Shown: positions 8,694 through 60,700 of the stretch, piece by piece
Position numbering within the stretch: the first letter of the stretch is position 1
Layout of the letters: every line of letters begins with the position of its first letter
Origin: Rhizaria sp. SCN 62-66
Taxonomy: Eukaryota
Length of the DNA: 64,000 nt
Direction of reading: 5' to 3'
Assembly (NCBI GenBank): GCA_001724265.1
Contig: MEDY01000208.1
Coordinates: 1 to 64,000 of the forward strand
Program-made: the position numbers and the translations under genes
Notes under the pieces: model-generated
Told to the model about the DNA's origin: nothing
The model's input: only the letters and a program-made list of their open reading frames with translations
Databases searched by the model: none

Positions 8694-11186
8694 TTAGTAG
8701 TGGCGCTCAAGAACGTACCAGCCGAAGGAGCGGATCATGACCTTGTAGTACGAGTCCGGGATGGCGGCGTCGAGCAGCTTCCAGGCGTCCTCGACCATGT
8801 CGCGCGCCACCGCCGCGGAGCCCTCGATGGCGTCGACGGACTGCAGCTTCTGGATAAGCTTGCCCACCACGGCCGGGTCCTGGGGCTTGGTCTTGAGCAC
8901 GGACCAGAACTCGGTGCGGTCGGCGGCCGACAGCTTGGTCATGCCGAACGCGACGGGGTAGGTGACCTTGCCCTCGCGGAGGTCCTCGCCCTTGGTCTTA
9001 ACGTCGCCCTCGAAGCCCTTGAGGTTGAGCACGTCGTCGATGATCTGGAACGCGATGCCGATCGACTCCATGTACCGGCCGATGACCTCGATCTGCGTGG
9101 GCGTCGCGCCGCCGATGAGCGCGCCCATGCGCGCGAGGTTGCCGGCGGGAACGGCCGACTTGAGGCGGTGCGTGCACGTGACGGCGCGGAGCAGCTCCTG
9201 CGGGTCCTGCTCGCCAGAGCAGATGGCGTCCATGCGGTAGTCCTGGCCGTAGATGTCAAAGGCCTGGCCGGAGTGGCCCGCGCGCAGGGTGAGGAAGTAG
9301 AGCTCGTAGAGGCGCAGACGCATCTCGGGGGTCAGGTCGGGCGTGCGCGACTGGAGGACGTCCATGGCGAGGAAGTAGGCCGAGGTGCCGACGTTGATGG
9401 CGATGGGCTCGCCGTGCTTCAGGTGGCACGTGGGGCCGCCGCGGCGCGTGACCGACTTATCCTGGATGTCGTCGACGATGAGGGAGCCGACGTGCATGAG
9501 CTCGGGCATCGCGAGCCAGTGCTGGAACTTGAGCGAGTTGCCGCCGACGCAGTCGATGCAGAGCAGGCAGGCGTAGGAGCGCCAGGCCTTGCCGCCGCGG
9601 TCGATGATCTCGCGCATCGGCAGGATCATCGTGTCGTTAAAGACCTTGAGGTCGGCGCCGTCCATGTAGTGGTCGTTCTGCTTGTCGGCGAGCAGGTCAC
9701 GCGCCTGCTCGTACGTGGGGTTTAGCGGCATCACGTTGCGGACCTCGTCGCGGACGACATTGGAGATGATCTTGAAGAACTCATCAAGCGAGCCCGTGTC
9801 GCCGAATCCGTGGCGCTCGAGGAAGGCGTTACCCGTGACAGGGACGCCGTCGATGGAGCCCGTGACGCGCATGCGGCCCTCCCAGAAGGACGGCTTGGCG
9901 ATCAGAGTCATGATCTCCTGCTGCGGCATGATGGCCTCGAGCTGGAGGTCGATCTTGCCCGACGGCACGGTGAGCTTCCACGACAGCGGGTATTTGGCCG
10001 AGGAGCGGACCGAGGTCCAGAAGTTGGTGCCCTCGAGCTCGAGGTCGGGGTACTCGACGCGGGACGAGTCGGCGCCGATGACGATGGCGAAGTTGTCGTA
10101 GATCTCGCCAGTGCGCCAGTCGACGAGGTTCGTCGCAGTGATGTCGCGACCGTCCTCGAGCTGCATCGAGAACCAGTTCCACGCGTATGAGGCGTCCTTC
10201 TCAGCCTTGGACTCCTCCTCGACCTCGAGCTTGGGGGCGGCAGCGGGGGCGTCGGAGTCCGTTGCGGCGGCGCCAGCAGCGCCGGTGGTCGCGGTGGCGG
10301 CGGCGGCGCCGTCGGCGTCGGAGGCCTTGAGCTCCTCGTTGTGCTGCTTGGTGTAGACGTTGTCGCGGATGCCGCCGCCGAACTCGTGGTCGTACCACGC
10401 GGCGCCCGTGATGGGGATCTTGCGATCACCGAGCGTGATGGAACCCACCATCTGGTTGCGCGGGATGAAGTAGTAGAACATCGTCTCCTGCTTGACGCCG
10501 ACCTGGACGACGCCGCCGTGGCCCTGGCGGGTGGGCTTCTTCTGCGGAGTCAGCACGACCTCGAACGAGACCTTGGTGGTGGGGAAGTTGACACCCATCG
10601 AGTACGTGGTGTTGTCGGCGTTCTTGCGGAAGTAGTTGCCGTTGCCGTAGTCAAGGTTGAGCTCGGTGGTGGAGACAACGCAGGCCTTCTCCATGGGCAC
10701 GTCTGGAAGGGGGACATGGCCCTTGTTGGCGATCTCGAGCATGGCGCGCGCGAGACGCGAGTCGAGGTCGTACATGCCGTTCTCGAGCTGATACTTGAGC
10801 ACCTTGGGCGTCTCGGCGTCAACGTACGTGACGGGGTAGTAGGCCTTCTTGGCGACATCGAGGACGCCGCCGGAGAGAGCGTGAAGGTGCTGCGGGTTGC
10901 CGTCCTTGTCCTTGCCCTTGAAGACGCGGAAGAAGGACGCAAAGACGGAGAACTCGTTGCCTTCGGCGTCCTTGGCGTGCGAGTTGACGTACCACCACTC
11001 GGTGTTAGCGGAAGCGTGGGGCAGGTCCGCAGTCATGAGGTCGATGTCGCCCTCGGCGGCAGGCCAGTCGGACGGGCGGACGTAAGTCTTGTTCAAGGCC
11101 TCGGCGGTGGCGTGGGCCATGCGCTGACGCTTCTTGTCGTTGCCAATCAGCTCATCGGCAGGGCGCACCTGCTGGGTAGACGACAT
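8694..11186 (-). CDS. Fusion protein (830 aa): N-terminal AttH/CrtC-like (lipocalin-like double beta-barrel) domain plus C-terminal trans-prenyl diphosphate (GGPP-type) synthase
   Basis: N-part motifs: LPHASANTEWWY, AWYDHEFGG, YAWNWFSMQL, FWTSVRSSAKYPLSWKL, FWEGRMRVTG. C-part motifs: RGGKAWR, FARM LIVDDIQDKSVTRRG, GQAFD, SARM FQIIDDVLN, GEDLREGKVTYP. Intronless, strong C/G third-position bias, TAA stop. Confidence 0.9.
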   Translation of the reverse strand: MSSTQQVRPADELIGNDKKRQRMAHATAEALNKTYVRPSDWPAAEGDIDLMTADLPHASANTEWWYVNSHAKDAEGNEFSVFASFFRVFKGKDKDGNPQHLHALSGGVLDVAKKAYYPVTYVDAETPKVLKYQLENGMYDLDSRLARAMLEIANKGHVPLPDVPMEKACVVSTTELNLDYGNGNYFRKNADNTTYSMGVNFPTTKVSFEVVLTPQKKPTRQGHGGVVQVGVKQETMFYYFIPRNQMVGSITLGDRKIPITGAAWYDHEFGGGIRDNVYTKQHNEELKASDADGAAAATATTGAAGAAATDSDAPAAAPKLEVEEESKAEKDASYAWNWFSMQLEDGRDITATNLVDWRTGEIYDNFAIVIGADSSRVEYPDLELEGTNFWTSVRSSAKYPLSWKLTVPSGKIDLQLEAIMPQQEIMTLIAKPSFWEGRMRVTGSIDGVPVTGNAFLERHGFGDTGSLDEFFKIISNVVRDEVRNVMPLNPTYEQARDLLADKQNDHYMDGADLKVFNDTMILPMREIIDRGGKAWRSYACLLCIDCVGGNSLKFQHWLAMPELMHVGSLIVDDIQDKSVTRRGGPTCHLKHGEPIAINVGTSAYFLAMDVLQSRTPDLTPEMRLRLYELYFLTLRAGHSGQAFDIYGQDYRMDAICSGEQDPQELLRAVTCTHRLKSAVPAGNLARMGALIGGATPTQIEVIGRYMESIGIAFQIIDDVLNLKGFEGDVKTKGEDLREGKVTYPVAFGMTKLSAADRTEFWSVLKTKPQDPAVVGKLIQKLQSVDAIEGSAAVARDMVEDAWKLLDAAIPDSYYKVMIRSFGWYVLERHY

Positions 11187-13314
11187 TGTCTGTACGGAGT
11201 GTCAAAAACAAAGAAGGACAGGTGAGCGGACGCGAAACTGGAAATGGCGAACGACGGGCGGAGAGGGGGTTCGTCAGCGGAACTCGGAAGACCGCGTTAC
11301 ACGGGCAGGCGAACTTTGGGCACGATGAAAAAAGATATTTAAATAAAAAACAACTCGTTACATTTGGATCTTTAACTTTTTCGTCGGTTGAAAGAGCTTT
11401 CGGGCCTAATTTATGCAGGTGCGCGGGGTCGACGTCGACAGCCCTGCCTCCTGCCCCGTCGAGAGCTCGCAAAGTAAGGGCCAGGGACTGTGAGCACCGA
11501 AGACCGATCAGAGACTTTGGCTGGCGACGCGCCACTGGCGGCCAGCGCGCCGTGGGGCGACGGGCCATGCAGGCGCAGCGGCCACCCGCGCGATCTCGGC
11601 CAGATCTCCGTCAATAAAGGATCTAGCTTGGAATAACGGGATTTATTGCAGATTGCTCCGGATGACGCTTTAGATCCGTTCCGCATGGAGGGCTTGTTGC
11701 TCCTTCGCATCGCCCCAAAGGAGGCCCTTGCGAGTAGCAGATCAAACCATTTTGGAGAAGCAAATTAGATTCGCGTAGGATATCCTTTAAGTATATTATT
11801 ATCGCCGGCTGTTTTCATGCTGAGATTCAATTTTATCTCTTTCCGCGCTCATCTTGCCTGTCGAGCGGCGGGTTCCGGCGATGACCGTTTCCAATTCGTC
11901 ATCACCTCGATTTCCCGCGCCACTCCTGCCTGTGCTGCTGCTTGTCGCCGAGCGCGCGTCACAACACCGAAAGCTGCGCTGCACGCTACCGGCTGAAGTT
12001 TGCTTCTGATTGCGCACGGTGACGCTGCTTCACTGCGTGGTTGCGCGGCGACAGAGCTGTTCGGCCATATACCGACGAAGGGTGCGGATTGCTGGGTGGT
12101 GCGTGGTCTCGCTGCTATCAACCCGCGCGTGAAGACTGCAACGTGCGATTTTATCGCAGTTTTTGACTGCAGACAATGCCTTAGAGCTATTATTAGTAAA
12201 CACGGACGCATTTTTTATTCGATGTCGATATTCGCGTGGGTGCTGCGGATGAAACGGTGACTCCGCCTGAGAATGACGTAAGATTTGTCCTGCTCGATTG
12301 GACTGCAAGTGATATTTTTTGTTGCCTAAGTGATATTTTGAGACTCGAACTGTAGACGAAGGCTGGGTATATGGTGATTTCAACTGATCGTTTTAGTATT
12401 CATGAACGATATTGTCAGTTACTGTGTTGAGATATGATGCTTTCGTTCTGGGGCACTTCAGTCGCCGCTATTTAAGACGCGTCGCTCGAGTTAGAATGAA
12501 CTTTATGTTGTCCTGCGGGATGTTCACATCGATGTGTAGAACCTATCTTCGTCTGTGCTTGCCACTATTTGAGTTCATTCGCAATTGGACGCTCCTACGA
12601 CTCGCTGTCAAGTACTATGACGCCATACTGAAGAACGAAGAACAACCGTATCCGAGGCCGCGGCAATTTGAGGTACTTGAAGATACATAATTAGCATTGG
12701 AGACTGGAAATAAAGCACTATCGGATACCTGGCCCTTAAGTGGCAGGTGGGTACAGGGGAGCGCTGCCGAGATACACTTCGTTATTTTCAAGTTCTGGAG
12801 GGCGACAACGAGCCTCACAGCGTGTCGACTTCAAGCTTGAAGAAAGTACCGTGACATGACTTATACGCGATATATATTTGGATTGTAGTGGGATATTCTA
12901 GTGTATCCAAGTCGAATTTACTCAAAATGCAAATTTCAGATTTTCTATAAGCATTCTTAGCGCACGCAAAGTGACTTGACGTGACACGAGGAGCAGCGGG
13001 GGTGTTACGAGCTTCACAAGTAACGTATTTTCAAACCTAATTGGGGACCTTCTCTGACCGTCAATGAGGCAGAGACACGCAAATTCAGGGGAACTAGCAT
13101 GTTTTATATGCTATATATAGTCATTTATTTTCGCCCTGCTGGTTCTCGGAGCGACGTAGACACTACCAACGTCGCCGACCGAAGTTGGGGTCGGGACCGA
13201 AGTTGACGTCGTAATTTTTGTTTCTCACACCGAGTTTTTTCCTGTATTGCCTTGACTATGCACCGCCTAGGAGGTGCGTCGTACAACTCGACCGGCATTC
13301 ACTCTCCACTCCAG

Positions 13315-15996
13315 ATGGACGACTCTGACTCGCCCCCTTCGCTGCTGAAGCTGGCGGAGGTGTCAACGACTTTGCCCGTGCGCTCTGAGCTCTGCGCAGA
13401 ACCGTTGCGGGTACTCACAACGCGCGTCCTCGTGTATGACGAAGCCTCGGACAGCGAGGCCGCATTGCCTTGGATTCTGCGCAAGGACCCGCTCAACGGC
13501 GGCTACAAGTATATTGTTCTGTTTGCCTCAACAGTGACCATGCTTGCGTTTTCGTCCGTGCTCTCGGGCTCTGTGTATATCATTCCACTCGAGGACGAGT
13601 TCTCGCTCACGCGCTCCGACGCCTCGCTCTTCGTCTCGCTCTCGCTGGGCATCTTCTGCGCCGCGACAATTTTCATCTCCAAGATTGCTGACCGCATCGG
13701 CATGTACGCCACCACGGTCATCGGCTACCTCGCACTCTGTCTGGGCTACTTCGTGCCGTCGTTCCTGCACTCGTACGGCGGCGTGCTGGGCGTGTACATC
13801 GCCTTCATCGGGCTCGGCGCCGCCGCGCTGCAGATGATGCCGATGCTCTTCGTCCAGGACTGGTTCGAGCCGCAGGGCCGCGTGGGCTTCGCGCTCGGCG
13901 TCTCTCTCTCCGCCGTCGGCCTCGGTAACATCGTCATGACGCTCTACATGGAGCACTTCATCGACACGGCATCCTGGCGCGTCTCGCTCCGCTACATGGC
14001 GCTGCTCACGCTCGCGCTGGGTGTCGTCTCGCTCGCCGCCCTCCGCGCGCGCGCGCTGCACCCGCACCGCCAGCGCGGGCTTGCACTCGCCGCCGTCTCT
14101 CTCTTCCGCGCCGCGCTGCACGGCGGCGACGCGGCCGTGCGCGCGCCGCCCGCGTGCTGCCCGCCCGGCGCCGCGCTGCACCACTGCCTCGGCCACCAAC
14201 CGCCTGCGCCCGCCGTTGCCGCCGCCGCTGCCGCGAGCGCGGGCGCGCGCGCGGGCGGCGTGACTGGCGGCGGCGTGCGCCACGAGCTAGACTGCTCGTA
14301 CCCCGGCTTCGAGGCACTCCGCGCGCACGCCGACGTCGTCGCCGCAGGCCCCGCGCAGCCGCACGAGGTCTCCGCCACGGCCACCGTCGCTGTCGCCGCC
14401 GGCGCCGCCCCCGGGGCGGGCCCGCGGCAGTCGCCGGCTGCGGTGTGGCTGAAGGACGCGGAGCTGGATGACGTGGACACCACCGCCGCGGAGGCCGCCG
14501 CAGAGGCGCTGCACGATGGGCTGACCGCGGGCGAGCCTTTCTTCCGCGTGAGCATGTTCTACCGTCCGCGGTTTGTGCTGTTCTTTGTCGCCGCGCTTGT
14601 CGGCACGTTCAACTTCTACTTGCCGACGGTGCACTTGGTGCCACACGCGGAGGATATGGGCGTCGGCGACCCGTCTTTCTTGCTTATCATCATGGGTATC
14701 GTCACGATTTGCTCGCGTATCATCTTTGGGCTTGCCGCAGACCGCATTGGTGGCGTTAACGTGTACACCATCGCGTGCACACTGCAGCTCGCGCTCATGA
14801 TACTCTGGCGCTACTCGACCACTACCGCGCACTTCCAGGTACGTTTGGAAAGAATCTTCGGAATTGTTTAATTGTTTCACTCTGTCCCGCTGCAACATTT
14901 TTTTTTGCGTTGAATCTACTGTATTTCATTGAATTATCTTCTGTTGCATGTATCTACATGTGTTTCAACACAATTGGATATCAGTTCACAACTTGCAATT
15001 CTGATGCACTCTATTCGATCTTACTTTGGCTTTTTTTTTGCTGCTCAGGCTGTGGCCGCGATGTACGGCTGCGTCGGTGGCGCGTACATTGTTGGTATCA
15101 CGGCCACAATTCGCATGATGAGCTTGCCGATCGAGCTGTCGAACTCAATGGACTGGGTGCTGGGCGTTGGTTTCGCCCCCGGCGCGACGCTGGGTGGCCC
15201 CATCACGGGCTGGGCCTACGCTGCCGAGAACGAAAACTACGTCCCCGTGCTCACGGGCTTCACCATCTCGTCCGCCATCTCCGTCGCTATCATGCTCGTG
15301 CTCGCGCTCTACAAGCCGCGCGCCAACACCCCGCGGCCGCCGCAGCCGCGGGCCGTGGCGACGGACTCCGCGGCCGTTTCGCTGCACGGCGGCGCGGCCT
15401 TCTCCGGCGACGACGCCGCGCGCTTGGAAGCCGCCCGGCCCTTAGACGCCGCACCGGCGCCCACGGTGGACATGCCCGCGCGCCGCCCGCCGCTCGCGTC
15501 GCGCATTGGCGCCTTTAACGACGACGGATCACACTCGGACGCGCACTCGGAGACCAACTCGGACGCGCCTCTCGACGCCACCGCGGGCGCCACGGGCGCT
15601 GCTGCGTTGTCCTCGACGAGCTCTGCGCACACCAGCGAGGGCGATATCGTGCGCAAGCCAATCGGCGCGCGTTCGTCGAGCGATATCTCAATCGCGATGA
15701 CTGACGGCTCGGGCTCCGGCTCCGGCTCTGTTGCCGGCACTGCCTCTGTTGCTGAGGGCCAGAGTGGGCTGACCAAGAGCTCGACCGCTAAGTCGACAGG
15801 CACCCTGAGTCCCGCGGGTTCCACGGTTGGTGAGCATTCGCTGGCGCCAGTGCTGGTGAAGTCCGAGTACATGTCGGGTCGCATGTATATCTCACGTGTT
15901 CTCTCGCTTTTGCGCACAATGGCCGTGCGCAGCGCCCGGGCGAGCAAGCTCGCGGCCACGGCGCCGAGGGACTCCACGGCCGCTCCACCAGTCTGA
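13315..15996 (+). CDS. MFS transporter, monocarboxylate porter (SLC16/MCT-like), ~823 aa; exons 13315-14838 and 15049-15996
   Basis: Two hydrophobic helix bundles with MFS motif A variants (SKIADRIG, GLAADRIG), QDWF..RVGFALG and FNFYLPTVHLVPHA. Intron CAG|GTACGT...CTCAG (14839-15048, AT-rich, phase 0) joins track ORFs 13252-14871 and 14929-15996. An alternative upstream ATG lies at 13258. Confidence 0.85.
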
Positions 15997-16852: not shown

Positions 16853-17449
16853 TCAACCCTCGCGGTCGAGCCGCGCAAGCTCCGCCGCCAGGTCAAACTT
16901 CCCAGCGTTAGCGTTGTTGCTCTTGTTGATACGGTCGAGATCTTTCTCAGTGAGAATGCCCACCACCAGCGGCTTCTCAGCACCAGCGCCTGCGCCCGAG
17001 TCAGCCGCAAACTCTGCCTCTTGCGCCTCGTGGCCGTAGCGCTCGCGCAGGTGGCGGTAGCGCTTGAAGCGCGCGCGGCCCTGCTCCTCGCGCAAGTGCC
17101 AGCGGCCCTCAACCACGGCTGCGCGAACAGCGGCGTCGTCCGTCAGGTGCGCGTGCTTCGCCAGCTCGCGGCGCGCGGCCGCGCGGAGGTAGTCGGGGTC
17201 GTAGTGGTCGCGGGTGAAAAGCGCCACGCGCTGAGGCGGGTGGTGCGGGCGAGGTCGGGGTGTGAGCGTAACGGAGTTTGGTCAGAAGATGTGAGAAGGA
17301 GGTCAGCGAAGGATTTCGAGAGAGATCTGTCACGCACATTCTAGCAAAAAGTAATACAAACAACTAGATCACCGCATACTACGCACCTTGAGAAGGTCTT
17401 TAACCATAGCCTTGGTCTTGGCGGTCACGGGCGTGGGGGCAGCGGACAT
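16853..17449 (-). CDS. ETFRF1: LYR-motif protein, ETFRF1/LYRM5-like, 146 aa; exons 17449-17387 and 17230-16853
   Basis: Spliced product MSAAPTPVTAKTKAMVKDLLK|RVALFTRDHYDPDYLRAAARRELAKHAHLTDDAAVRAAVVEGRWHLREEQGRARFKRYRHLRERY fits the LYRM5 pattern (LYK..L...RDY...; KYR.MK.RY). Intron AAG|GTGCGT...TCAG, 156 nt. Confidence 0.7.
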
Positions 17450-18288
17450 GGCTGCAGAAGCAAAGTGTGGTGCTGCTTGGATAAGAAGGGATCTATGGAG
17501 GTAAAACAAGTCCTATGAAGCATAAGGCAACACAATTTTAATGTTAGATCAATGGGCAGTGACGTGCATCCACGTGCAGTTCTAGTTAGCGACAAAATCC
17601 ACCTCTGCACCGCTAAGTGGACGACGTTCGCGGCAGCCAATCATCACAGCAAAGATATTTGTGAAAAATATGGGTAGCGCTTGATATTTGCGTTCACAGA
17701 AGATGTAATTTTGGAAACATATACAATTACGCGCATGAGTTTCAGATCGAGGCAGGGAAAGGGTATTGACGAAGAAAGTCAACGGATTTTTATGTTATTA
17801 AGGAGCTCTTTTGCACAGGTTGGGGAGACACAGCAGTGACAGCGCACCGCACGAACAACTAGAATAACGAGATGACACATTATACAGATTCATTTCGCCT
17901 AGAATTAGTAAAGAGGGGATTGATATTGAGTTAATGCACCACTAGATAGTACTACGCGGTCTTCATGACCCGCGCGACGAAACATAACATAATTGGACGC
18001 CTCAGGACGTCTCGGTAGCACCAGCGACTGCGCGCAGCTGCGCACCAAACGAGGACGCCCCTTGCTGAAGACGCGACAAGGCCGCGGGGGCAAACGCACC
18101 GGTGCTAGGGCTGATGCCGCTGTCAGGGGAGCGATTATTAGCAATGACGCCATTATCTGCGAAGACACAACCGCTGCTAACTTTGTGGTCGGCAGCGTGA
18201 GCGCGGAGGAGAGCAAAGCCGTCATCACTTGCAGCATTCACGCGCTCAACCAACCTGTAGTGCGCCCGCCTGCTCTGCGACAGCTTAC

Positions 18289-20906: not shown

Positions 20907-21376
20907 GGTCCTCTGCCGTTTGGGGACTGCCCGATTTTGAGTCGCGAGAGCGGTTTACCCTATAAAATGTGTGGTGTAAAAATAGAAGATGCGAGTAAAT
21001 TTAAACGCAAGTTTGTTATAACACACAGTTTCATTCATAATGACGATCTCCACCTCTCCACCGAAGACGATTCTTTTCGAATTGCGGATGTCGCTTGTTG
21101 GCACGTCGCTGTCTCGCTTTTTTGCGAACCCCTTTTCAACCTTCAAGCATAAACAGACTGACAACAATCAAATTAGATCAGATAACACGTCAATTCGAAC
21201 AGCCAGCGGAAAATGTCAACTTGAACATGATAATTACATTCTGTATTCTATCAGTAAAGCGCGTTATTATTACGAATATCCCGCGCAGTGAGTCGACCCT
21301 AACCTTAAATTGAAGCGTGTACAACAAGAAGTCAAACTTGCTTTTGCTTTAGCTTGAGCTTGCTCGTGTTGCGCGC

Positions 21377-22894: not shown

Positions 22895-23191
22895 TGGTAT
22901 CTGCAGTGGTCCAAGTGGAGTGTGAAGAAAGGAAGGATTCACCATAAATAACGAATCATTGTTGAGATATCAATTTGCGAGAAGATAGATATATAAACAA
23001 ATACTTCACAACATATACGTGCTTTCCTTGTGACGTTCAATTCGACGATGTTTCAATGGTCAACGTTCTGCTGACACATACATGTTTTTCGCGAGGCTCT
23101 CCTCTGAGGTGACTGTGAGCAAACTAGTTTTAAAGTTGTTTAGGTTGAAGAACAGAGTTATTTTTATTAATAAATAAGTTTAACAAATAAG

Positions 23192-29768: not shown

Positions 29769-29825
29769 GAAGTTCAACACATTCACTCGAAGATTTGTGC
29801 ACTCATGAATTGAACACGACATATT

Positions 29826-29867
<42 letters not shown>
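29826..29867. repeat. (ATG)14 trinucleotide microsatellite between two convergent genes
   Basis: Perfect atg repeat read directly from the sequence. Confidence 0.95.
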
Positions 29868-46336: not shown

Positions 46337-46368
<32 letters not shown>

Positions 46369-48434: not shown

Positions 48435-48971
48435 GTCGAATGACCCTATAGACAAAGAAAGAAACGTCAAAAAAACGCAGATCTTGTGCTGGTTAGCGGG
48501 GTGCCTCGGTCATAGAGCGAGTGGCATCAATATCCAAAATAAAATGCCGCCACCACAAGATCGATGACAGGGAGATAAGGACGCGATATCGTCCCCAGGG
48601 GACTCGATACCCGGCCAGTAAAAATAGATTTCGACGAAAAAGTCAAAGTTCTACCACGGGAAACCGCTCGCAACACTATTTTCGGCAGTCCAGACCGTCT
48701 ACGGGACCTGATTTGCCGGGCTGGTCCTGCTCCCGCCCTGCTGCTGTTTCGACTATCGCTCGTCGATCAGTGACTGTGGGGCGGCTTGGATTTAAACACA
48801 CGCTCACCACAGTCGCATTGGCAGCCGAAAAAAGTCATGTCTAACTTTGTTTCTCGATGAAAGAAACGCATATCCGGTCGAATTTAGAATATCACGTGAA
48901 ATTCGTAGTTCTGTATTCAATAAACAATATATAGGTGTGTAATCATGTAGTATTCCAGGATTATACCGGAT

Positions 48972-51900
48972 TTACTCAGCGGCGGGCGCAGCGGAGGCAC
49001 TGGTCGACGCACTACTACTGCTGCTAGACGCGGCCGCTGGCGCCGTGTGCACGAACACGCGGAGTTCCTTGCAGAGCCCGGGGATCTTGGTGACGTAGAG
49101 CAGTCGGTCGAGCAAGTACGCGACGTTGGCGTGTGTACGCTCTTGCACCACCGGGTGGCCCATATCAAGCCGCGTGAGGTACTTAAAGCAAATCCCGGTG
49201 AAGAGCGATGCAATCTCGCGGAAAATTGCGTCGCGGTGACTCGGGTTCAGCAGCTCACTCAGCGCCTTGTGTAACGCCGCGGTCTGACGCAATAGCATGC
49301 GGATGCACTGGTCCGGCTTACCCGCCTCGTTCTGGTCCTTATCTTTGCTCTCGGTGTTGTTGTCCGCCGCAGCCGCGGCCGACACGGCGGCCTCAGCGGT
49401 CACGGCGGCGGCAAGTGACGGCGCCGCCGCAGCCGCACGCGCCCAGTCCGTCACGAGCAGCTTCTGGCACGCGGCTTCGCAGATCGATCCAACCATGTTC
49501 GCGAGCTTCGAAAACACCTCCGCGCGGTGGTAGTCTAGATCGCGGCCCAGCGCATCAAGAGCCTGGAGCAATACGGCCTGTTTGCCGGAGAGCCGGCGGG
49601 CAAGCGCGCGGCGCAGCACGGGCAGCTGCGACAGTGCAAAGCCCACGGCCTGCGCCGCGAGCGCGAGATGCGTTGCCGTGACGGCCTTGACACCGACCGT
49701 CTGCATGCACTGCGCGCCGAGCACGAGCTGGCAGGACCGCGTGTTGAACAGCTTGATGAGCTCGGCGGCCTTTTGCACCGCGGCGGCGGCCACGGCGGGG
49801 ACCTCAGTGGCGCATTCGACGTGTTCCCGCAGAGCGTCGACGAGCACGAACACGGCCTTAACCGCGGGGAAACCACCGCGCACGAGCTCGTTGCCGCTAG
49901 CGCTGCCGATGCTGCCGCCGACGCCGCTGACGCCACTGAACGCGTTGCTGAAGCTACGATTAGATGACGAAGGCAGAGGTGAGGTCGAGGTCGGACCGAA
50001 GCCGGCGACGGCGGACGCAGGCATGACCACATACAACATCGGTGTAGCGGTCGTAGCGGTCGCCGCCGTCGCGGGAGCAGTCGCGTTTTCACCACCACCA
50101 TCAGCAGCGGCAGCGGCAGCAGTGCTGGCAGCAGCGGCGGCGGCAGCGGAAGCGGCGGCGTTGGCCTCGGCGGTGGCTGCTAACGCCGCCGTGACGGCCT
50201 CGTCGACTTCCTCCTCCGGCCCCGGCGCCAGATTAGGCGTATACGCGCAGTCTAGCGCGCGTTGCACGCTCTCGGGCGCGGGGACGGGCGCCCAGAGTTC
50301 AGCGTCGAGCGCGGCCGAAAGCTCAGACATCGCGCGGGCACTGGCGGCGGCCAAGAACGCCTTAGCTTGATCTAAGAGAGTCGCGCGGAGACCGTAAAAG
50401 GCGCGCCCGCAGAGCTGTTCGGCGTCGGCGACAAGGTCCAGTGCTTTGTCGACAACTTGGCGCAGCTCCTCCAGAGTCAGCGAGGCGTGGGCGGCGGCGC
50501 GCGCGGACAGCATGCGGCCGACACGGGCCTGTGAGGCGAAAAGCAAGATTTAACACAAGTAGATATAGAGCGGTTTAGATGTGAGTATTGGGAATTTGTA
50601 GTTTGAAATACGACTAAAATAAATCGTTTCGCAAAACTTGATATTCATTTCAATAATTAGATCTTTTGATCGAGAGAAATGTTGTAATCGTACCTGGAGG
50701 AACTCTGCGAGCTGGTAGAGTGAGCCCGTCAGCTCGGCGGACAGAGCCGCTGAAGACGCCGCGGCCGCCGTACAGCAGCGGTCGGCGGGCGGGCCCCAGC
50801 GCACGGGCTGCAGCCGCGGGGGCGCCAGGACCGCGTTCGCCGCCGCCGTCGCGGCAGCGGCCGCGGCGTTGGTGGGGCTTGGCTCAGGAGACTTCTGCTG
50901 CTGTTGCTGCTGTTGCAGCTGTTTGCTGTTGGTGTGATTATTCACAGCGTGAGCGTTGTTGGCGCTGCTCATCACGGGGTAGGGCTCCGCGGGGACGGGA
51001 TCCATCGCCCGCGCCACGGCAGCCAAGTGCACCACGACAGTCACGCCTTCCTCGGCCTCGACTGCACCCGCACTCTCACACGCGTCCAGACCGTGACCGT
51101 GAGCGTCGTCAGCCGTCGTTGCGGCGGGTGTCGCGTGGGTCACGGCGGGGTACCAGGGCCGCAGCCGACCGCGCGCGACGTCAACCACCGTCACCCCAGT
51201 GCCAGTGGGCCCAGTCAGCGCCGCGTCAAACGCCGCACGGAGGGCCGTGGGCGCGGCGGCCTCTGCGGCGACGCCTGCGACGAGTAACGCAAGGGCATGG
51301 GTACGGGTAAGGAGCGCCGTGAGCGTGCCGCACAGAGGCACAAAGAAGAGCATGAAGCGCGCGTGGCTCAGCGCGGCCAACCTGGCCGCCAGCGGCCGCG
51401 GGCCGCCGTCATTTGCAGCTGGATTCGCGACGGATGCACTCGCAGTGTCTGCGTTGGTGTCGGTGGCGGACTGGACAGGTGTGCCGACGGCAGTACTTGT
51501 GGTACTCATGGTACTCGTGGGGCCCGGAGAGCCAGCGGTGGCGTTGTTGTGCGGCGTCGGCGGCGCAGACTGGGTCAGAGGCGTCGTCCCCGCCTCCGTA
51601 GTATGGACCAGGAGCGCCGAGTTGTTGCTCGCATCTGCTGCGGCGGTGTCGGCGGGCTCGACCACCGCAAGCAGCTCCGACACGGCGCGCGCCAGAGTGA
51701 GCTTCACCGCGTCACCGAGCGCGTCCTTGAGCGGGCTCGCCAGCGCGGTGAGGCCGCCAAGTGAGAGGAGGATGCGGAGGTGGGCGCGCGCGGTGCGGGC
51801 CTCGGCGCGGGTCAAACCGCCCGCGGCCGCCACCGGGTCCTCGTCCTCCTCTTGATCCTCGCGATCGGCATCATTAACCTCAGTCTTGGACTTTGCGGTG

Positions 51901-52266: not shown

Positions 52267-52300
<34 letters not shown>

Positions 52301-53864
52301 GCGTGCCGGGGGCCGCCCTCGCCACGGCGTCCCCGGCAGCGGCAACAACCTGCGTCTCGAGTACAGAGGCAAGAGCAAGCGCGCGCCTGAGCACGAGCGC
52401 AGCGGTTTCGGCGCGCGCGGCGTTGTCCCCAGCGCGGGCGGCCGCGAGAGTGGCCAGAGGGGGCCCGACGGCGCCGCCGCCGACCTGCGCGACGGCGCCG
52501 CGAATCAGCGAGATTTCGGCCAAACACGCGGACACGTCGTCGTGGAGCGCCTCAAGCGTGTGCAGCGACTGGAAGAAGAACGGCGCCTTGGCCGCGACCT
52601 GCGTCTGCAGCGCGGCTTCGACCTTGTCGGCGTAGGTAGTGAGCTCTTCCTGGAGCGCGGCGACGGCGGCGGCGCCCGCGGCGTCTGGGGACGTGGACCC
52701 GCCGACCGCGGAGCGGGCGCGAATGAGCTCGGCGCTCGTGGCGGCAGTCGCGCCCGCGCCGGTGCCGCCGCCGCCGTCGTCATCGTTGTTGCTGCCCCCG
52801 TAGCCGCTGGGGCTGTGGCCGTGGTCGAGAGCGCCGCGTTGAGATGATAGCGCGGACGGGGCCGGGCGCGGGGCGGTCGACGACGATGACCTGTTGTTGA
52901 GGCCGCCGTATGTCACGGAGGACTGCGGGTCAACGGCGGTGCCGGCGAGAATGCTCTCCGTGGTCGGGATCCCGATCGAGTGCAGAACTTCGGTCGGCAG
53001 AAGCGCGGGCGCACGGGGCGCGGCGTCCAGATCCGCCAGAAAGGGCTGCTGTGAAAGCGCGTAGGAGCTGAAGAAGAACGGCCGCGGGACGGTGCGCAGA
53101 CAGTCGTCGAGCTGCGCGTCGACGGCAACGCGCGACACCGCTGGCGACACGGACGACGGCGACGACGAGGACGAGGACGATGAAGATGCAGCAGCAGTGG
53201 CGCGCGCCACCGCAGCGTTGGCGTTGCTGTTGGCAAGCGCGGGACCGTGGTACAGCGCGGGTGCCGCTAACCCTGCGGCAGCGATCGCCTCCGCAGTGGC
53301 GGCCGCGATTGACGCTGCGGCGGCGGCGCGCGCGCGGCGTTGAGTGCGCGCGCGTTGCTGCTCGAGCTGGGCGCGGCGGAACGAGCCCGCAAGCGAGCCC
53401 AGATTGCGGAGGTACGCCTTGAACACGGGCAGCGCGGCGGCGGCGTCGTAGACTTCGGGCCTGTGCTCGATCGCCTCATCCGCCGGCGCAGTGTCGTCGT
53501 CGTCGTCGGGGTCGTTGAGCACCGAGGACAGCGACTGCAGCGCGTGGGAGCGGGGGATGCGGGGCGGGCGGGACGCGTCGGCGCTGTGCGGCAGCTGCGG
53601 GAACCGCGTCGCCGGCGCGAGGTCGGCCGCGAAGGGCGAGGGCGCCATGGTCGAGAGGAAGGTGCTGGTGCGGCTGTGGCTCGATGGCGAGCCAGAGCCG
53701 GCCGAGGTGATCGTACTGGCGGAGCGCGGGCGCGCGCGCGCGGCGGACGGGTGGTGCGGCGCGACGTCGAGCTGACCGAAGGTCGGGCCGCGCGCGTCGG
53801 CTGGCGACGGCTGCGGGGAGGCGTCCGTGGCGCTCTCGGCCCAGGGGCCCCAGATCAGGTCCAT
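48972..53864 (-). CDS. VPS54: GARP complex subunit VPS54, ~1575 aa; exons 53864-50694 and 50528-48972
   Basis: LSSVLNDP; LRTVPRPFF; LQEELTTYADKVEAALQTQVAAKAPFFFQSL; FNTRSCQLVLGAQCMQTVGVKAVTATHLALAAQAV; DLDYHRAEVFSKL. Intron CAG|GTACGA...CACAG, 165 nt. Confidence 0.9.
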
Positions 53865-54552
53865 TGCGGCTGTGCCAGGACGCGGGGCGCGGGCAGGGGC
53901 GGGAAGGGCAAAGGGGGCGCGCACCCAGAGCGCTGCAAATGGACGGTGGCGGCAAAGAGCAGCTGAGGACGCAAGGGATGGAACGCAGGAAGGGCAGCCG
54001 GTCTGCCTGAGGTCCAGTTTAGGAGCGAGAGTCGGAAGAGCTATGGATGAAGGACGCGATATAAGAGGGGAGGATTCCCGTGAGCAGCATATCATTTAAA
54101 TAGGGCATATAATCAGCACGATTCAACATCAAAAAGCTTCTCATGTTCGTATTGTCGACGGACATGTAGCGTGGCAGCTCGCTGATTTAAACCTGCTGAC
54201 AGATCCAAGATGAACGAGCGACGACGAGGAGGCGGCCTGGTTCGCAAAAATGTTGGGTAAAGCGACAACAGGGAGTCATTTTCGTTCGACTCACTTTTTG
54301 AAGGCATCTACAACCCGTCTCTGCAGGCTAGTGAAATTGGGGTTATCATATGTTATAGTGCTGACCGGGGTCTATTTATAAACAATATTCACATCCACTG
54401 TTGACACGACCTTCTCCTTCCATACTCTCACAATGAACGCCCTTCGACCCTTTCTTTGTGTCTCCTTCCATCCTCTCTTTGCCGCTTCTTTCCATCTCTC
54501 TTCAACCTCCATGAATCTTTTCACTGACGCGTATGCTGCACCTTACAGTGAA

Positions 54553-55272
54553 ATGCGTGTGCAGTTCGTTATTGCGGCTGTCGCGCTGCTGCTCGGGCTC
54601 GTCGCGGCTGTTGAGCAGGACAAGTGGGCGGGCGTGAGCGTCGCTTCCGGTCCCAAGAACGACATTGCGCGTACGATCATGCAGCCCGGCCGCCCGATCG
54701 TCGTGCACCCGTTCGTGGAGCCCGTGGAGAAGGTTTATAACAAGACCAAGACCACCCCCGGCGTCCTCTGCGAGACGAGCTCCGACTGCGAGGCCTGCAT
54801 CGGCAAGCACTACTGCCTCTGGACCGAGGACAGCAAGTGCGTTAACTCTGCCAAGTCGTCGTCCCGCGCGCTCGTCTTCCAGGGCAAGGCGTCCAACGTC
54901 TGCGTCTCCAAGGACGCCATCCTTAAGCGCACCATTGTGAAGCAGCAGCTGCACCGTCTGTCGCGCGCCACCGAGGTCCAGCCCCTGCCCCCGCTGATCA
55001 AGGCCCTCCGCAACCCTGAGGCCGTGCCCCCTCTTAACTACGGCGGCGTGCCCCTGTACGTCAACAAGGCAATCAAGCTCGACATCCCCGTTGCCGCCAA
55101 GCCCGTCTTCCCCCCCGGGTTCGCTGCCGAGCACCTCCTGGCGAAGGACGCCAAGACGTTCTCGTCCAACACCACTGCGCAGGTCAAGATCGCCGCGCCC
55201 CAGGGCTCCAAGAACGTCCAGTTCGTCGAGTCCGCGGCCGAGGTCGAGCAGGCCGCCGAACACATCCTCTAA
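54553..55272 (+). CDS. Secreted protein with PSI-like Cys motif, 239 aa
   Basis: Signal MRVQFVIAAVALLLGLVAA; PGVLCETSSDCEACIGKHYCLWTEDSKC...VC; very strong codon bias; TAA stop. Confidence 0.75.
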   Translation: MRVQFVIAAVALLLGLVAAVEQDKWAGVSVASGPKNDIARTIMQPGRPIVVHPFVEPVEKVYNKTKTTPGVLCETSSDCEACIGKHYCLWTEDSKCVNSAKSSSRALVFQGKASNVCVSKDAILKRTIVKQQLHRLSRATEVQPLPPLIKALRNPEAVPPLNYGGVPLYVNKAIKLDIPVAAKPVFPPGFAAEHLLAKDAKTFSSNTTAQVKIAAPQGSKNVQFVESAAEVEQAAEHIL

Positions 55273-55967: not shown

Positions 55968-57033
55968 TTAGAGCTCCTCCTCAAACTCGGCGTCGAGCTC
56001 GACGTCGAACTCGGCGTCGATCTCGGCCTCGGCCTCAGCCTCGAGGTCCATCTCGGCCTCAGCCTCAGCCTCGATCTCAGCCTCGGCGTCGACCTCAGTC
56101 TCGAGCTCGGCCTCAGCGTCAACCTCAGCCTCGGCATCAACCTCAGCCTCGGCATCAACCTCAGCCTCGGCATCAACCTCAGCCTCGGCATCAACCTCAG
56201 CCTTCAGCCTCGGCCTCAGCGTCAACCTCAGCCTCGGCCTCGGCGTCAACCTCGACCTCGGCCTCGGCGTCAACCTCGAGGAAGGCGGGGGCCTCCTCCT
56301 CAGACTCGGCCTCAGCCTCGGCCTCAACCTCCTGCTCCTGCTCAGCCTCGCCCTCAGTCTCCTGCTCGGCGTCGGCCTCAGCCTCCTGGTCGGCGTCAGC
56401 ATCGCCCTCCTCCTCAGCCTCAGCCTCAGCGTCGACCTCAGTCTCGGCCTCAGCCTCGAACTCGGCATCAGCGTCGAGCTCGAAGAAGGCGGCAGGCACG
56501 ACAGCGGGCTGGACGAAGCCGGGGCGCTTGACAGCGACGCCGGCGGGGAGCACGTCAACGACGTCAGCGGTGGCGATGACGAGGTCGGCGGCGTCCTCCT
56601 CCTGACCCACAACGGCGGCCTCGGCGATGTCGAGCTCGCGGCGGGGCTGGGGGATGGTGAAGGAGCGCTTGCCAATCTGGACGGACTTAGCGCAAGAGTT
56701 CAGGGCAAGGTTCGAGTCCTTGGCACGCAGCTTCTCCACGGCCTCGGACGACTCGTCAAGGCAGGCGTTAGCGGTGGGAGCCCAGACGCAGTTGTGGAGG
56801 GTGACGCAGGTGTCGCACGACTTGGCGGTGACGCACTGGACGCCGGGCACCTTGCGGGTGGCCATGATGCCGTCGAGCTTGGGGGCAGCGACAACCTCGG
56901 GCTTCGCGGGCGCGGGCGCAGCCGCGGTAGTGTTGGCAGCCGGGGTGGTGGTGCTGTTAGCAGCCACATCGGCGGACACGAGCGCGGCCATGACGGCAGC
57001 GATGAGGAGCACAAGGACAGAGCGACCCTTCAT
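55968..57033 (-). CDS. Secreted PSI-like paralogue with a long acidic AEAEVD-repeat tail, ~354 aa; +1 frameshift at ~56203
   Basis: Signal MKGRSVLVLLIAAVMAALVSA; PGVQCVTAKSCDTCVTLHNCVWAPTANAC...SC. The acidic repeat continues from track ORF 56197-57045 into the frame of 55968-56675 once one base is removed from gct gaa ggc tga. Confidence 0.75.
56119..56203. repeat. 18-bp coding tandem repeat (tcaacctcagcctcggca) x4 plus a partial copy, inside a ~500-bp degenerate array (55975-56480) encoding AEAEVD
   Basis: Four exact copies read directly at 56119, 56137, 56155 and 56173. Confidence 0.9.
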
Positions 57034-57784
57034 TGCTTCACACACTGCAGAGTTGACAAGAGGGGAAGGGAAAAGTGGTTCATAAGTGGTATCAAGGATA
57101 AGCTATAGATCTGGCAGGTCTCATGTGAAATTCTCTACAGGTGAAATTATCAATTTCAAATACTAAATCGCGCAAATGAGTTTACTACGAAGTGGTAAAG
57201 ACGCTTGGAGAAGGGCAAAGGAGAGGTTGGATGGCATCCCCCACCAAGCAGACTTGGCGGTCCATACAGCTTCAGTAAGAGGTGAAAGCAAAGATTCTAT
57301 GCAATATAGTAATAATAGGAAATGCAACCTATATCATAAACGAGTCACAGTTTCATCGAGCGTCGTTTGGGTCTCGTGTAGACACTTTATTTGACCAGCC
57401 TCCCATCGGTCGATTGAGCTTGGTAGCGAAGTTAAGCCGCCCAAGACAAGAAGCACCGATCGAGACTGAGAGCAATGAGGAGCAAGCCCAAGTCGTCCCC
57501 AAGGAGGTCGGTGGTGAAATTGAGGCGTAGGATATGACGGCCTCAAAAGCTGTTGCGGCACCTAGAATTAAAAGCTAGTGCAGGGGCGACTTGATTCTAT
57601 GTTGTCGCTATTGAACTATCTTCACTGTCGGATGATACACCCTTTTCTTTGTCCATTTTAGTGCATTTCTCATTGCTCACTCACTGCTTTGCCTGTCCGC
57701 TCCCCTCTCGGTCCCCTCTGGACGCCCTCTTGTTGGGGTCTCGTAGTCACCCTTCGGAGGTCTAACAGTCGCAGTACGCAGGCC

Positions 57785-60700
57785 ATGACGACTCCGGCCG
57801 CTGTTCTGGACTTGTCCGATGCGGCGCGGGTCATGAACGGGCCCCTGCGCGTGTTGTGCCCGGATCCCTACCGCAGTCCCGACGACCGTGACGCGCAGAA
57901 CCACAAGCTTTTCACGCTACTGTGCAACTACCTTTCGCTCAGCCAGTTCGAGCTTGCCCGTCCCGTTATTACAGAGCTTTTCTTTGCATGTCCCGAGCGC
58001 ATTCTGCACCTTTTGCGCTCAATCATCGCCAAGACGATCCCCGACCAGTGGCTCTTCAACAAAACGGTTCCCTCGATCGGCCACCTGCAGTGGCTCGCTC
58101 TTGTCGAGTACGGCCAGCTCTACGCTAACGTCTTCGACAAGGCCACCGCGCTTACGCCCTCAGTCCCGCTCATCGTCGCCTCCAAGGACCCGCGCTTCGC
58201 CGCGCTGGCGCATTCGAGCGCGGTGACGCGTCACCCGATCAACCCGCTCGGTTTCATCACTCACGACCAGCTCGTGGTGCAGGTCATGGCGCTGGAGCTG
58301 CGCCGCGTCACCGCCGCGGGCTGCTTTGTGCGCGTTGAGCAAGAAGGCGACCAGGACGGCTTCTTCACCACGCCCGTCACCGCGCTCACAGCGGCCGGCC
58401 ACGCGGAATACCCCACGGCGACCCCGCCCAAGTGCAAGCTCGAGGTCAACATCGCCGATGCGCAGCTCGTCTTCACCGTCGCTACCACCGCCAAGCTGCC
58501 CCAGTCCGCCGCCAACAAGTCCGGCGCCGCCGCCGGCGCGCAGTCGAACAACAGCAGGTCTGGCGGCGGCAGCGGCACTGGCGCGACGACGCTCTTTGCG
58601 AAGGCCGTCATCGGGCTACACCAGCTCCGCGCCAAGGACAAGTACCACATCTGGGTGCCTCTGATCCCGCTGCACGCCAGCGACACCGCTGCTGCGGACC
58701 AACAGCTCGGCCGCATCCGCATCCGGCTCCGCTGGCGCCAGCAGTCGCTCGCCCCGCGCCGCGACGGATCGGCGCGCCTCTTCTCGGACCGCGCGATGTT
58801 GCTCATGGAGACAGACATCCTCCTCGCGCACGCCGCGGTCACCTACCCCGCGCTGCCGCCCGCCGCCGCGCTCGCCGCTGCCGAGTCGGGCTCAGGCGCC
58901 GCCGGGGCCCGCGGCGCGACCGCCGCCCGCAACACGGCCCGCGAGCCTTTGCTGCGGCCGGAGCATGTGAGCGAGATCCGCTCCTACTGCCTCGAGGCCG
59001 TGGGGCGCAAGGACCCCTCGCTGCTCATCTACCAGCGCCCCGCCGCGGATCCCACTGCGGCGCTGCTCCGCGGCGACGAGCCCGCGCCCGACGACGACGG
59101 CAACGGCAATAACGCGGACGGCAACGGTGCCGATACGGGCGCCGCGGGCGGGCTGCGCGGCAAGTACAAGCCGACGCACCGTATCCAGCACTCGCTGTCG
59201 GCGCTGCGTCGGCTGGTCCGTGAACACCCGTCGCTCGGACATGCGCTGTGCGCGCACTTGGCCGCGGTCCGCCCGCAGGACCCGACGTGGGTGTACCTCT
59301 ACGCCGAGCTCATCTTCGAAATGCTGCTGCGCCAGGAGCACCCCCAGGCCCTGCAGGCGCTGCTGACGCTCGTGCACGACATCTACCCCGGCGACGAGTT
59401 CTTCGCGGCGCTGTCGAACAACACGCCCGAGGCCGCCGCCGCGGCCGTGGCTGCCGCGGCGGGTGCGGGCCCCGGCGCCGCGGGCGTGCAGCAGCTCACT
59501 GGTCCGCGCGCCATGATGCGCGAAGTCTACCGCGCGCTCGTGCACTACGTGCACGACGACCCGGCCGCGCGCCAGCACCTCTTCCGCCTGCTGTCGCACA
59601 AGCGCCTCGTCACGGGGCTCGACGCGCCCGAGCTCTCCGGCCAAGAGCTGCTGCTGCTGTCGCGCGAGGAGGTTCTCGCCCGGCAGCGCCGCGTGCTGTC
59701 GCGCAAGTGCCGTGTGTACGGCGCACTTGTCGGAAACGAGCAAGTGCTCAAGCAGTTCTGCGCGCTTGAGGACTTTTACCTCCACGGCACCGCGGCCGCC
59801 GCCAAGGGCATCATCGCTGCGCGCACGCTGCAACTCCAGCCCGGCACGTCCGCCGCCGCGGCCAGCACCGGTGCCGCGGCGCCGCAGAGCAAGATCGCGC
59901 TGCTTCCGGGCACGCCGCGTGAGGGCGTCGAGCTCGACGTGCCGCTGTTTTTCCACTCGCTCGCCGACGCGCTGCGCGAGGTCGAGACGCTGCAGGCGCG
60001 CGCCGTGCGCGACTACGGCGTTGCCCCCGCGCAGCTGCCGGCGCACGTGCGCGAGCCGCTCTTCTCACTGCGCGAGGAAGCGTTCTCTGCGTTCTGGAGC
60101 GACTACTACAGCTTCACGCGCTCGCGCCGCGTGCATGTGTACGAATTCCCGCTTAAGTGCGCTCTGGAACTCGTGGGGACGATCTCGCGCATCGAGCTGG
60201 CGCCCGCCTGGCACGTCAAGGGCTACCCTTGCGCCGAAGGTACCGCGGGAGTCGTCACGGCGGCCGAGCGTGCGGCACTGACGGAGCTCTTCTGGTCCGC
60301 ACTTGAGACGCTGCTTGCACCGTTCAACTTCCTGCGTCCGCTGGTCGCGCTGCTGGCGTGGGACCGCGTCGACGGCAGCGCCGCGCTGCGCGGGGACGTG
60401 ATGCGCCGTGTGTGGCGGCCGTACCACCAGACGCTCGCCAACGCCGCCGTGTTCGAGTCGCTCATGGGGTCCGTGCTGGACACTGACGCCACGCCCGCGC
60501 ACGCCGCGTCAGAGGCCGCGCGCGCCGCCATGGGCAACGGCAGCAGCGAGCGTGCGGACAGCTTGACGGCGTCTGCGGCGACGGCGCCGGCCAGCGCGCG
60601 GCGGTCGCTGCAGCGGTTCGAGTGTGCGGAGCCGAAGCTCGTGCTGCACTGCAACCGGCTGGAGCTGGCTGTGGAGCTGAGCGAGATGGTCACCAACAAG

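Follow-up and report, generated by a model that had tools for sequence, protein, structure and literature searches.

Acceptor-like CAG sites directly upstream of start codons in 64 kb of protist nuclear DNA: indications of spliced-leader trans-splicing

Positions 1 to 64,000 of contig MEDY01000208.1 (assembly GCA_001724265.1, deposited as Rhizaria sp. SCN 62-66) were analyzed, and this whole stretch of 64 kb is the “window” in the following. This eukaryotic nuclear DNA consists of GC-rich coding regions and AT-richer spacers and harbors about 19 protein genes on alternating strands, including five head-to-head pairs. Non-coding DNA accounts for 17.6 kb of the 64 kb. The codon bias is strong, with 83% G+C at third codon positions (GC3) of the coding sequence and AGA, CGA, ATA, and TTA being almost unused, and the coding segments were mapped by codon log-odds, which is independent of any splice motif. 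The tRNA and Rfam scans of the window revealed neither tRNA genes nor Rfam families. The element considered here is a YAG trinucleotide (Y, pyrimidine), mostly CAG, located behind a pyrimidine tract just upstream of the start codon of most of these genes (Table 1). An earlier note on this DNA had read it as the acceptor site of spliced-leader (SL) trans-splicing.

All 16 strings of motif plus ATG quoted in that note were found in the window at the genes named. When the start codons chosen by the reader of the sequence were used, a YAG ended 0 to 11 nt before the ATG in 16 of the 19 genes, just as had been claimed, and this was a CAG in 15 genes and a TAG in one. Every AG found in this zone in the per-gene test was a YAG. 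The null rates were all taken with the same 14-nt test. A YAG preceded 27.8% and a CAG 20.4% of all 1,349 ATG trinucleotides on both strands of the window, and the respective rates in sliding windows from −15 to −300 were 20.9% and 12.3% on the sense strand and 29.4% and 17.8% on the antisense strand. The binomial P values ranged from 7e-9 to 1e-6 for YAG and from 5e-11 to 1e-8 for CAG. Comparing the k-mers at −14 to −1 of the 19 genes with those at −15 to −120, CAG was the top trinucleotide, with a frequency of 0.075 versus 0.010 (7.5-fold, P = 1.6e-10); in those 13 genes in which the chosen ATG was also the first one, it came second (P = 7e-6) after the overlapping GCA (P = 3e-6). Between −14 and −1, CA was continued to CAG 17 times, to CAC 13 times, and to CAA and CAT once each. 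The presence of an acceptor-like CAG/YAG pattern before the start codons was confirmed by these data. A Kozak-type element as the source of the pattern was ruled out by the spacing between CAG and ATG, which varies from 0 to 11 nt.

The reader had warned that the choice of the ATG was not always independent of the pattern, and this caution was justified because 6 of the 19 chosen ATGs are not the first of their open reading frame (ORF). Using the first ATG and the standard code, a YAG was present in 11 of the 19 genes (P, 5e-4 to 9e-3) and a CAG in 10 (P, 2.5e-5 to 6e-4). Eleven genes possess a single candidate ATG, no matter if the standard code is used or TAG is treated as a sense codon, and 8 of these had a YAG (P, 3e-4 to 4e-3) and 7 a CAG (P, 9e-5 to 1e-3). 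In five of the six ambiguous genes (Canopy, the methyltransferase-domain protein [MT], EF-kinase, VPS54, and PSI-1), the codon bias backed the chosen ATG, with the start of the MFS gene being ambiguous by this measure; GC3 in ambiguous genes was 0.35 to 0.67 between the two ATGs versus 0.70 to 0.92 past the chosen one. Moreover, the chosen ATG opens a signal peptide in two of them, Canopy and PSI-1.

Eight cis introns in eight genes served as the reference for acceptors. They were validated by ORF continuity, since splicing led to an intact ORF in all eight cases; in the model of the Canopy intron, the ORF stops 10 codons before the assumed end coordinate. The introns are 126 to 256 nt long, with donors similar to G/GTRCGT (R, purine; the slash marks the splice site) and with six CAG and two TAG acceptors. 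The statement that coding regions hold at most one intron was roughly right, as eight introns were defined in 8 of the about 19 genes. The sites upstream of the start codons, named 5' sites here, resemble these cis-intron acceptors. The pyrimidine tracts ascribed to them were borne out: aligned at the AG, the pyrimidine fraction of the sense strand was 0.64 to 0.67 from −100 to −2 versus 0.51 to 0.55 further upstream, and the number of AG dinucleotides per 100 nt decreased from about 6 further upstream to 1.5 to 2.8 in the tract. In the 40 nt before the AG, the pyrimidine fraction was 0.67 for the 16 5' sites, 0.73 for the 8 cis acceptors, and 0.50 for 3,286 control YAGs, and the respective median AG-free runs were 44.5, 82, and 12 nt. 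A joint filter, demanding a YAG, a pyrimidine fraction of at least 0.62 in these 40 nt, and an AG-free run of at least 35 nt, was passed by each of the 8 cis acceptors and by 9 of the 16 5' sites. Sites passing this filter were located 11 nt or less before the ATG in 9 of the 19 genes, compared to 0.39 expected from their non-coding density (P = 4e-11). Branch-like motifs were present at several sites, as had been described: CTAAC in case of NOP53 and the ZFYVE26-like gene, CTGAC in case of LYAR and PSI-1, and TTGAC in case of the GGPPS fusion. Between −8 and −60, CTRAY occurred at 5 of the 16 5' sites, at 4 of the 8 cis acceptors, and at 10% of the control YAGs, and YTRAY at 10 of the 16 5' sites versus 18% of the controls; the information content of both motifs is too low for 16 sites. 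Taken over all genes, the acceptor-like YAG behind a pyrimidine tract that should precede most starts in case of SL trans-splicing was present in 16 of 19.

The upstream ATGs provided information about the length of the mRNA leader. They were not depleted in comparison to the expectation from composition, with 7 observed and 8.2 expected within 50 nt, and 16 observed and 18.5 expected within 100 nt. In 16 of 16 genes, the start codon was separated from the last upstream ATG by a CAG or another YAG, also in MT and PSI-1, whose last upstream ATGs are at −8 and −20, respectively. The missing depletion indicates that the genome usually encodes less than a few tens of nucleotides of the leader. Such a short leader agrees with two readings: either the upstream region is removed by trans-splicing at the CAG, or transcription starts there. 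In three genes, the AG abuts the ATG, which leaves a leader of 2 nt unless something is added. TATA-like hexamers were found in 12 of the 19 genes at a distance of 49 to 232 nt, counted upstream from the CAG and, for the three exceptional genes lacking a close YAG, from the ATG. The usual distance from TATA to the transcription start is about 30 nt.

With fair confidence, SL trans-splicing can be named as the best-supported mechanism for the CAG sites. The earlier claim was supported in part, in that the signature fits outron-type 3' splice sites and cis introns were disfavored. SL trans-splicing is defined by a leader shared by many mRNAs and by an SL RNA gene, and no candidate for such a gene was found in the window. 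According to this mechanism, the CAG sites would be the 3' splice acceptors of outrons. Transcription would start about 50 to 200 nt upstream of each gene and yield a primary transcript with a pyrimidine-rich and AG-poor leader, often with ATGs scattered in it. At the first suitable CAG 0 to 11 nt before the start, the spliceosome would attach a short SL with a cap in trans; the SL RNA that donates it would be encoded in another part of the genome. The outron would be discarded, and the SL would form nearly the whole 5' untranslated region (UTR). We infer from the DNA sequence both the splicing at the CAG sites and the role of an SL RNA as the donor. Trans-splicing is favored over a transcription start at the CAG because the architecture of the tracts equals that of the validated introns, because three genes would otherwise have 2-nt leaders, because the TATA-like hexamers are further upstream than is usual for such a start, and because the proven SL acceptors described for cryptomonads share the signature (PMC5619915).

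An alternative already mentioned in the earlier note assumes that the CAGs are acceptors of ordinary cis-spliced introns in the 5' UTR with gene-specific first exons. The acceptor-like features would be the same as those for trans-splicing, and in this respect the alternative is equally well supported; the donors argue against it. The eight true donors, scoring between 10.1 and 17.7 bits, were used to build a donor matrix. In the 9,500 nt scanned before the genes (19 × 500 nt), it gave a single match of at least 8 bits, located at −384 of the gene at 37583. Relaxed donor hexamers were found 11 times in 7,600 nt upstream, which is the background level given by the window-wide rate of 0.675 per 400 nt, and 9 of the 19 genes had none within 400 nt upstream. 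An outron should not have a cis donor upstream of its acceptor, and the outcome of the matrix and the hexamer scan agreed with this. The donor and the gene-specific first exon required for a cis intron were not found as a general feature, with a plausible donor in at most four genes: GTGCGT at −41 of the MFS gene, the matrix match (37199) of the gene at 37583, GTAAGT at −393 of NOP53, and GTAAGT at −79 of the gene at 1762. The MFS candidate would produce an intron of 41 nt. Between the head-to-head start codons at 27724 and 27873, two first exons and two introns would have to fit into 148 nt, although the validated introns are 126 to 256 nt long. As upstream donor-like sites occurred at the background rate, 5'-UTR introns as a general explanation are highly improbable. 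The gene at 37583 by itself may have a genuine one. Transcription starting at the CAG, the main rival of trans-splicing, has a better standing, being unlikely but worth consideration. Here, a pyrimidine-rich core promoter would end in the CAG, which would act as an initiator-like start with C at −1 and A at +1, and the leaders would be unspliced, genome-encoded, and 2 to 13 nt long. Transcription start sites usually follow a pyrimidine-purine rule, and plant promoters contain pyrimidine-rich patches upstream of the starts; a pyrimidine followed by A behind a tract agrees with both. The undepleted upstream ATGs are explained equally well by this rival. Moreover, the 5' sites are somewhat unlike the cis acceptors: TNCAG, with T four positions before the G of the AG, was present in 11 of the 16 5' sites versus 1 of the 8 cis acceptors, and an A followed directly after the AG in 8 of the 16 versus none of the 8. 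The 5' sites may therefore carry a motif of their own, distinct from that of cis acceptors. On the other hand, leaders of 2 to 13 nt are not known outside a small number of strongly reduced parasites, for example Giardia and microsporidia, and the locus with its large share of non-coding DNA is not compact like these. The G after CA is near-obligatory between −14 and −1, which the initiator consensus does not require. In metazoa, this consensus is YYANWYY (W, A or T), and initiators differ between lineages. Compared with YYANWYY, which may not suit this lineage, the A was preceded by C in 15 of the 16 sites, but this C by a pyrimidine in only 5 of the 16; the base after the G was A or T in 10 of the 16, and there was no pyrimidine preference further downstream. 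The distance of the AT-rich TATA-like blocks does not agree with a start at the CAG, and AG-free pyrimidine tracts of 80 to 130 nt match the architecture of the validated introns instead.

These motif differences between 5' sites and cis acceptors weigh against SL trans-splicing, and so do several other results. Under the harshest rule, with TAG as sense codon and the most upstream ATG as start, the excess was weak, with a YAG in 8 of the 19 genes (P, 0.03 to 0.17) and a CAG in 7 (P, 0.006 to 0.04). The joint filter also passed 43 other non-coding and 99 coding sites, which means that a pyrimidine tract plus YAG is unspecific on its own. The genes at 1762, 31960, and 37583, listed as exceptions from the beginning, are indeed without a nearby YAG, and the region upstream of 31960 is AG-free for about 112 nt. 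They do not contradict the outron model: a CTGCAG after a pyrimidine run is located 55 nt upstream of 1762, and the nearest AG of 31960 is a TAG after a T-rich run at this distance of about 112 nt, with no ATG in between in either case, while the gene at 37583 has an AAG at 15 nt and the sole matrix-positive donor upstream. Upstream ATGs within 200 nt were in frame in 21 of 41 cases instead of the expected third (P = 0.014), so part of the upstream region could be translated or retained in the mRNA; some of these in-frame ATGs are followed by in-frame stops. A leader-like k-mer common to the upstream regions of the genes was not found, only pyrimidine-rich 7- to 10-mers. Neither an SL RNA gene nor a known SL family was found in the 64-kb window; Rfam gave no hit at the gathering score and, at an E value of up to 5, nine chance-level matches in the window, none of them an SL. 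A scan of the window with the donor matrix and an Sm motif yielded the intergenic donor-like sites at 37199 (+) and 12849 (−), which were rejected as SL RNA gene candidates because they have no Sm-like site. Genes for SL RNAs consist of a leader exon, a GT donor, and an Sm-binding site, are usually multi-copy, and would normally be found outside a window like this one, so the missing gene says little. The N-termini of eight close relatives of the calcium-dependent protein kinase (CDPK; 65 to 89% identity) all begin at Met and are uninformative with respect to a translated leader. Finally, SL trans-splicing is reported as absent in Bigelowiella natans, Plasmodiophora brassicae, and Reticulomyxa (PMC6053224). 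The weak excess under the harshest rule, the many acceptor-like sites elsewhere in the window, and the equally pyrimidine-rich region upstream of 31960 without any AG would also be expected if the CAGs had no role in processing and were a by-product of the composition of pyrimidine-rich 5' UTRs or promoters, together with the choice of the ATG by the reader. This is the least probable of all these explanations: the pattern persisted in the genes with a single candidate ATG, the AG was preceded by C in 15 of the 16 sites (P = 1e-5, assuming a local C content of about 40%), and CAG was strongly enriched over the adjacent upstream sequence, which is equally rich in pyrimidines.

SL trans-splicing as the preferred mechanism can be compared with known systems. 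In outrons of kinetoplastids and nematodes, the first AG past a polypyrimidine tract serves as the acceptor, which in Caenorhabditis elegans is often very near the ATG; the 5' sites share the tract and the closeness to the ATG. Kinetoplastid genes form long polycistronic arrays on the same strand and have almost no cis introns, unlike the alternating strands, head-to-head pairs, and cis introns here. SL trans-splicing has been reported for Euglenozoa, dinoflagellates, Perkinsea, several animal groups, and Paulinella (PMC6053224), and also for cryptomonads (PMC5619915). In Guillardia theta, a cryptomonad, the proven SL acceptors are described as C/TAG preceded by a polypyrimidine tract, the distance from acceptor to ATG peaks at 0 nt, the UTRs do not exceed 10 nt in 36.6% of the transcripts, and ordinary cis introns are also present, all of which is similar to the window (PMC5619915). 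In contrast to the signature available here, a 17-nt leader and 20 SL genes of G. theta were found in transcripts and genome, and about 21% of its genes were seen to be trans-spliced, compared to the signature in 16 of 19 genes (PMC5619915). Paulinella, the only rhizarian lineage with a reported SL, likewise has an AG acceptor upstream of the ATG; its 33-nt leader is known from cDNA (PMC6053224). Literature searches did not turn up a further rhizarian case, but the genome paper of the organism itself, if any, could describe one. Sequence comparison places the nearest named relatives of the CDPK, among the matches listed, in the Cercozoa at about 50% identity: Plasmodiophora brassicae with 51% and Cercozoa sp. 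M6MM, a metagenome-assembled genome (MAG), with 48%. Few of the 120 relatives listed are named, and environmental proteins among them reach 89% identity. In the eustigmatophytes Monodopsis and Vischeria, SLs at 36 to 61% of the genes were recognized only recently, and their genomes contain both terpenoid pathways (PMC8570151). The window probably belongs to another lineage because no eustigmatophyte was among the few named CDPK relatives of these 120 matches. The protein search with VPS54 gave three weak matches, and an Atlas search with the protein of the gene 30158-31960 gave leads (TMEM70-like) all below 0.9, none of which was taxonomically informative.

The genetic code of the window may also deviate from the standard. 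If TAG is read through, 1762-7560 (+) forms one frame of 1,932 codons with five TAG and without any TAA or TGA, and all four segments with coding potential are in this frame; the protein is of low complexity. The mevalonate kinase contains an in-frame TAG, too, inside the conserved N-terminal region. The stops at 17 well-defined gene ends were TAA in nine and TGA in eight cases, never TAG. In-frame TAGs together with the missing TAG stops indicate that TAG is probably either a rarely used sense codon or efficiently read through. Assignment of an amino acid by alignment of mevalonate kinases failed because the position is variable, with Q, R, T, or S in solved structures. A precedent is the sainouroid rhizarian exLh with UAG coding for Leu, in which UAG is abundant, 384 codons in 71 genes, unlike the rare TAG here (PMC5304391).

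Taken together, the window could tentatively be assigned to an undescribed and possibly rhizarian lineage, a suggestion that falls somewhat short of being probable. This lineage would use near-universal SL trans-splicing at a CAG 0 to 11 nt before the ATG, with the SL as almost the whole 5' UTR, in ordinary monocistronic, bidirectional, and intron-containing genes with TAG as a sense codon, and would represent one more independent system beyond the Euglenozoa and dinoflagellates. The eukaryotes with SL trans-splicing form a scattered set, and each new lineage bears on the question of whether it arises easily and repeatedly. If true, near-universal SL usage without operons would test the idea that SLs persist by trimming leaders with harmful upstream ATGs. 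For annotation, gene callers that rely on the first ATG would mis-start 6 of the 19 genes here, and a CAG rule combined with TAG as sense would be an improvement.

Table 1. Features of the window. Y40 is the pyrimidine fraction of the 40 nt before the AG, “G” with a number gives the position of the G of the AG, and branch-like motifs are given at their position relative to the site.
Feature	Position (strand)	Motif and start codon	Other properties
5' site, GGPPS-CrtC fusion	11184..11231 (−)	TACAG (G 11190), 3-nt spacer, ATG 11186	Pyrimidine-rich tract; Y40 0.75; AG-free run 48 nt; TTGAC at −12; only candidate ATG
5' site, MFS transporter	13273..13317 (+)	TCCAG (G 13314) abutting ATG 13315	Y40 0.625; AG-free run 41 nt; upstream in-frame ATG 13258 is a possible alternative start
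5' site, LYRM-like	17447..17493 (−)	TGCAG (G 17452), spacer cc, ATG 17449	Y40 0.675; only candidate ATG
5' site, mevalonate kinase	20904..20954 (−)	GGCAG (G 20913), spacer aggacc, ATG 20906	Y40 0.525; AG-free run 14 nt; weakest tract of the 16
5' site, Canopy-like secreted protein	22892..22942 (−)	TGCAG (G 22901), ATG 22894	Pyrimidine-rich tract containing upstream in-frame ATG 22945; AG-free run 103 nt; GC3 0.35 between the ATGs vs 0.70 after; signal peptide
5' site, tRNA-methyltransferase-domain protein (MT)	27722..27766 (−)	CACAG (G 27725) abutting ATG 27724	Three upstream ATGs inside the tract
5' site, WD40 protein	27831..27875 (+)	TGCAG (G 27872) abutting ATG 27873	
5' site, NOP53	34117..34168 (−)	TCCAG (G 34127), 7-nt spacer, ATG 34119	Pyrimidine-rich tract; Y40 0.775; AG-free run 79 nt; CTAAC at −46
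5' site, EF-hand/kinase-like	34635..34681 (+)	TCCAG (G 34676), spacer cc, ATG 34679	TCCAG also precedes upstream in-frame ATG 34571
5' site, LYAR	40267..40322 (+)	TTCAG (G 40308), 11 nt before ATG 40320	CTGAC at −10; second YAG (TTAG) 4 nt before the ATG
5' site, CDPK	41718..41770 (+)	CTCAG (G 41759), 8-nt spacer, ATG 41768	123-nt AG-free pyrimidine-rich tract
5' site, FMR1-like	48432..48487 (−)	TATAG (G 48446), 11-nt spacer, ATG 48434	T-rich tract
5' site, VPS54	53862..53911 (−)	CACAG (G 53870), 5-nt spacer, ATG 53864	C-rich tract
5' site, secreted “PSI-1”	54507..54555 (+)	TACAG (G 54548), ATG 54553	190-nt AG-free tract with three upstream ATGs; CTGAC at −21; signal peptide
5' site, secreted repeat protein “PSI-2”	57031..57086 (−)	TGCAG (G 57045), 11-nt spacer, ATG 57033	
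5' site, ZFYVE26-like	57740..57787 (+)	CGCAG (G 57781), 3 nt before ATG 57785	CTAAC, then three CAGs, of which this is the last
Cis intron, MFS	14839..15048 (+)	GTACGT...CTCAG	
Cis intron, LYRM	17231..17386 (−)	GTGCGT...CTCAG	
Cis intron, Canopy	22160..22285 (−)	GTAAGT...CGTAG	
Cis intron, EF-hand/kinase-like	35525..35709 (+)	GTACTT...AACAG	
Cis intron, gene at 37583	37856..38033 (+)	GTACGA...GTCAG	
Cis intron, CDPK	42635..42802 (+)	GTGCGT...TTTAG	
Cis intron, FMR1-like	48125..48380 (−)	GTAAGT...ACCAG	132-nt AG-free pyrimidine tract
Cis intron, VPS54	50529..50693 (−)	GTACGA...CACAG	
In-frame TAGs, gene at 1762	2341-2343, 2428-2430, 4999-5001, 5176-5178, 5668-5670 (+)	TAG	
In-frame TAG, mevalonate kinase	20781-20783 (−)	TAG	
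Intergenic donor-like site	37199 (+)	cag/GTTAGT	9.4 bits; 384 nt upstream of the gene at 37583
GGPPS-CrtC fusion gene	8694-11186 (−)		830 amino acids
Frame switch, mevalonate kinase	about 19330-19400 (−)		
“PSI-2” C-terminus	55971-56260 (−)		Tandem acidic repeat
(ATG)n-like run	past 29768 (+)		

Some additional features of the window were observed. CTGCAG was present in the 5' sites of four genes. In the head-to-head pair of MT and WD40, the 148 nt between the two ATGs consist of an AT-rich core between two pyrimidine tracts, and on each sense strand the tract is followed by the CAG abutting the ATG. The GGPPS-CrtC fusion combines CrtC/lipocalin-like domains with a polyprenyl (GGPP) synthase. 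Its named relatives are bacterial MAG proteins with deltaproteobacterial and myxobacterial names at 41 to 44% identity, with unnamed ones reaching 58%, and the gene is a candidate for horizontal transfer into a eukaryote. In the mevalonate kinase gene, the frame of an Asp-rich insert differs from that of the conserved C-terminal part, without a recognizable intron; the switch may stem from a genuine frameshift, a very small unconventional intron, or an indel in the assembly. The frame of the acidic repeat at the C-terminus of “PSI-2” shifts through several stops. The (ATG)n-like run begins directly after the stop codon of the WD40 gene.

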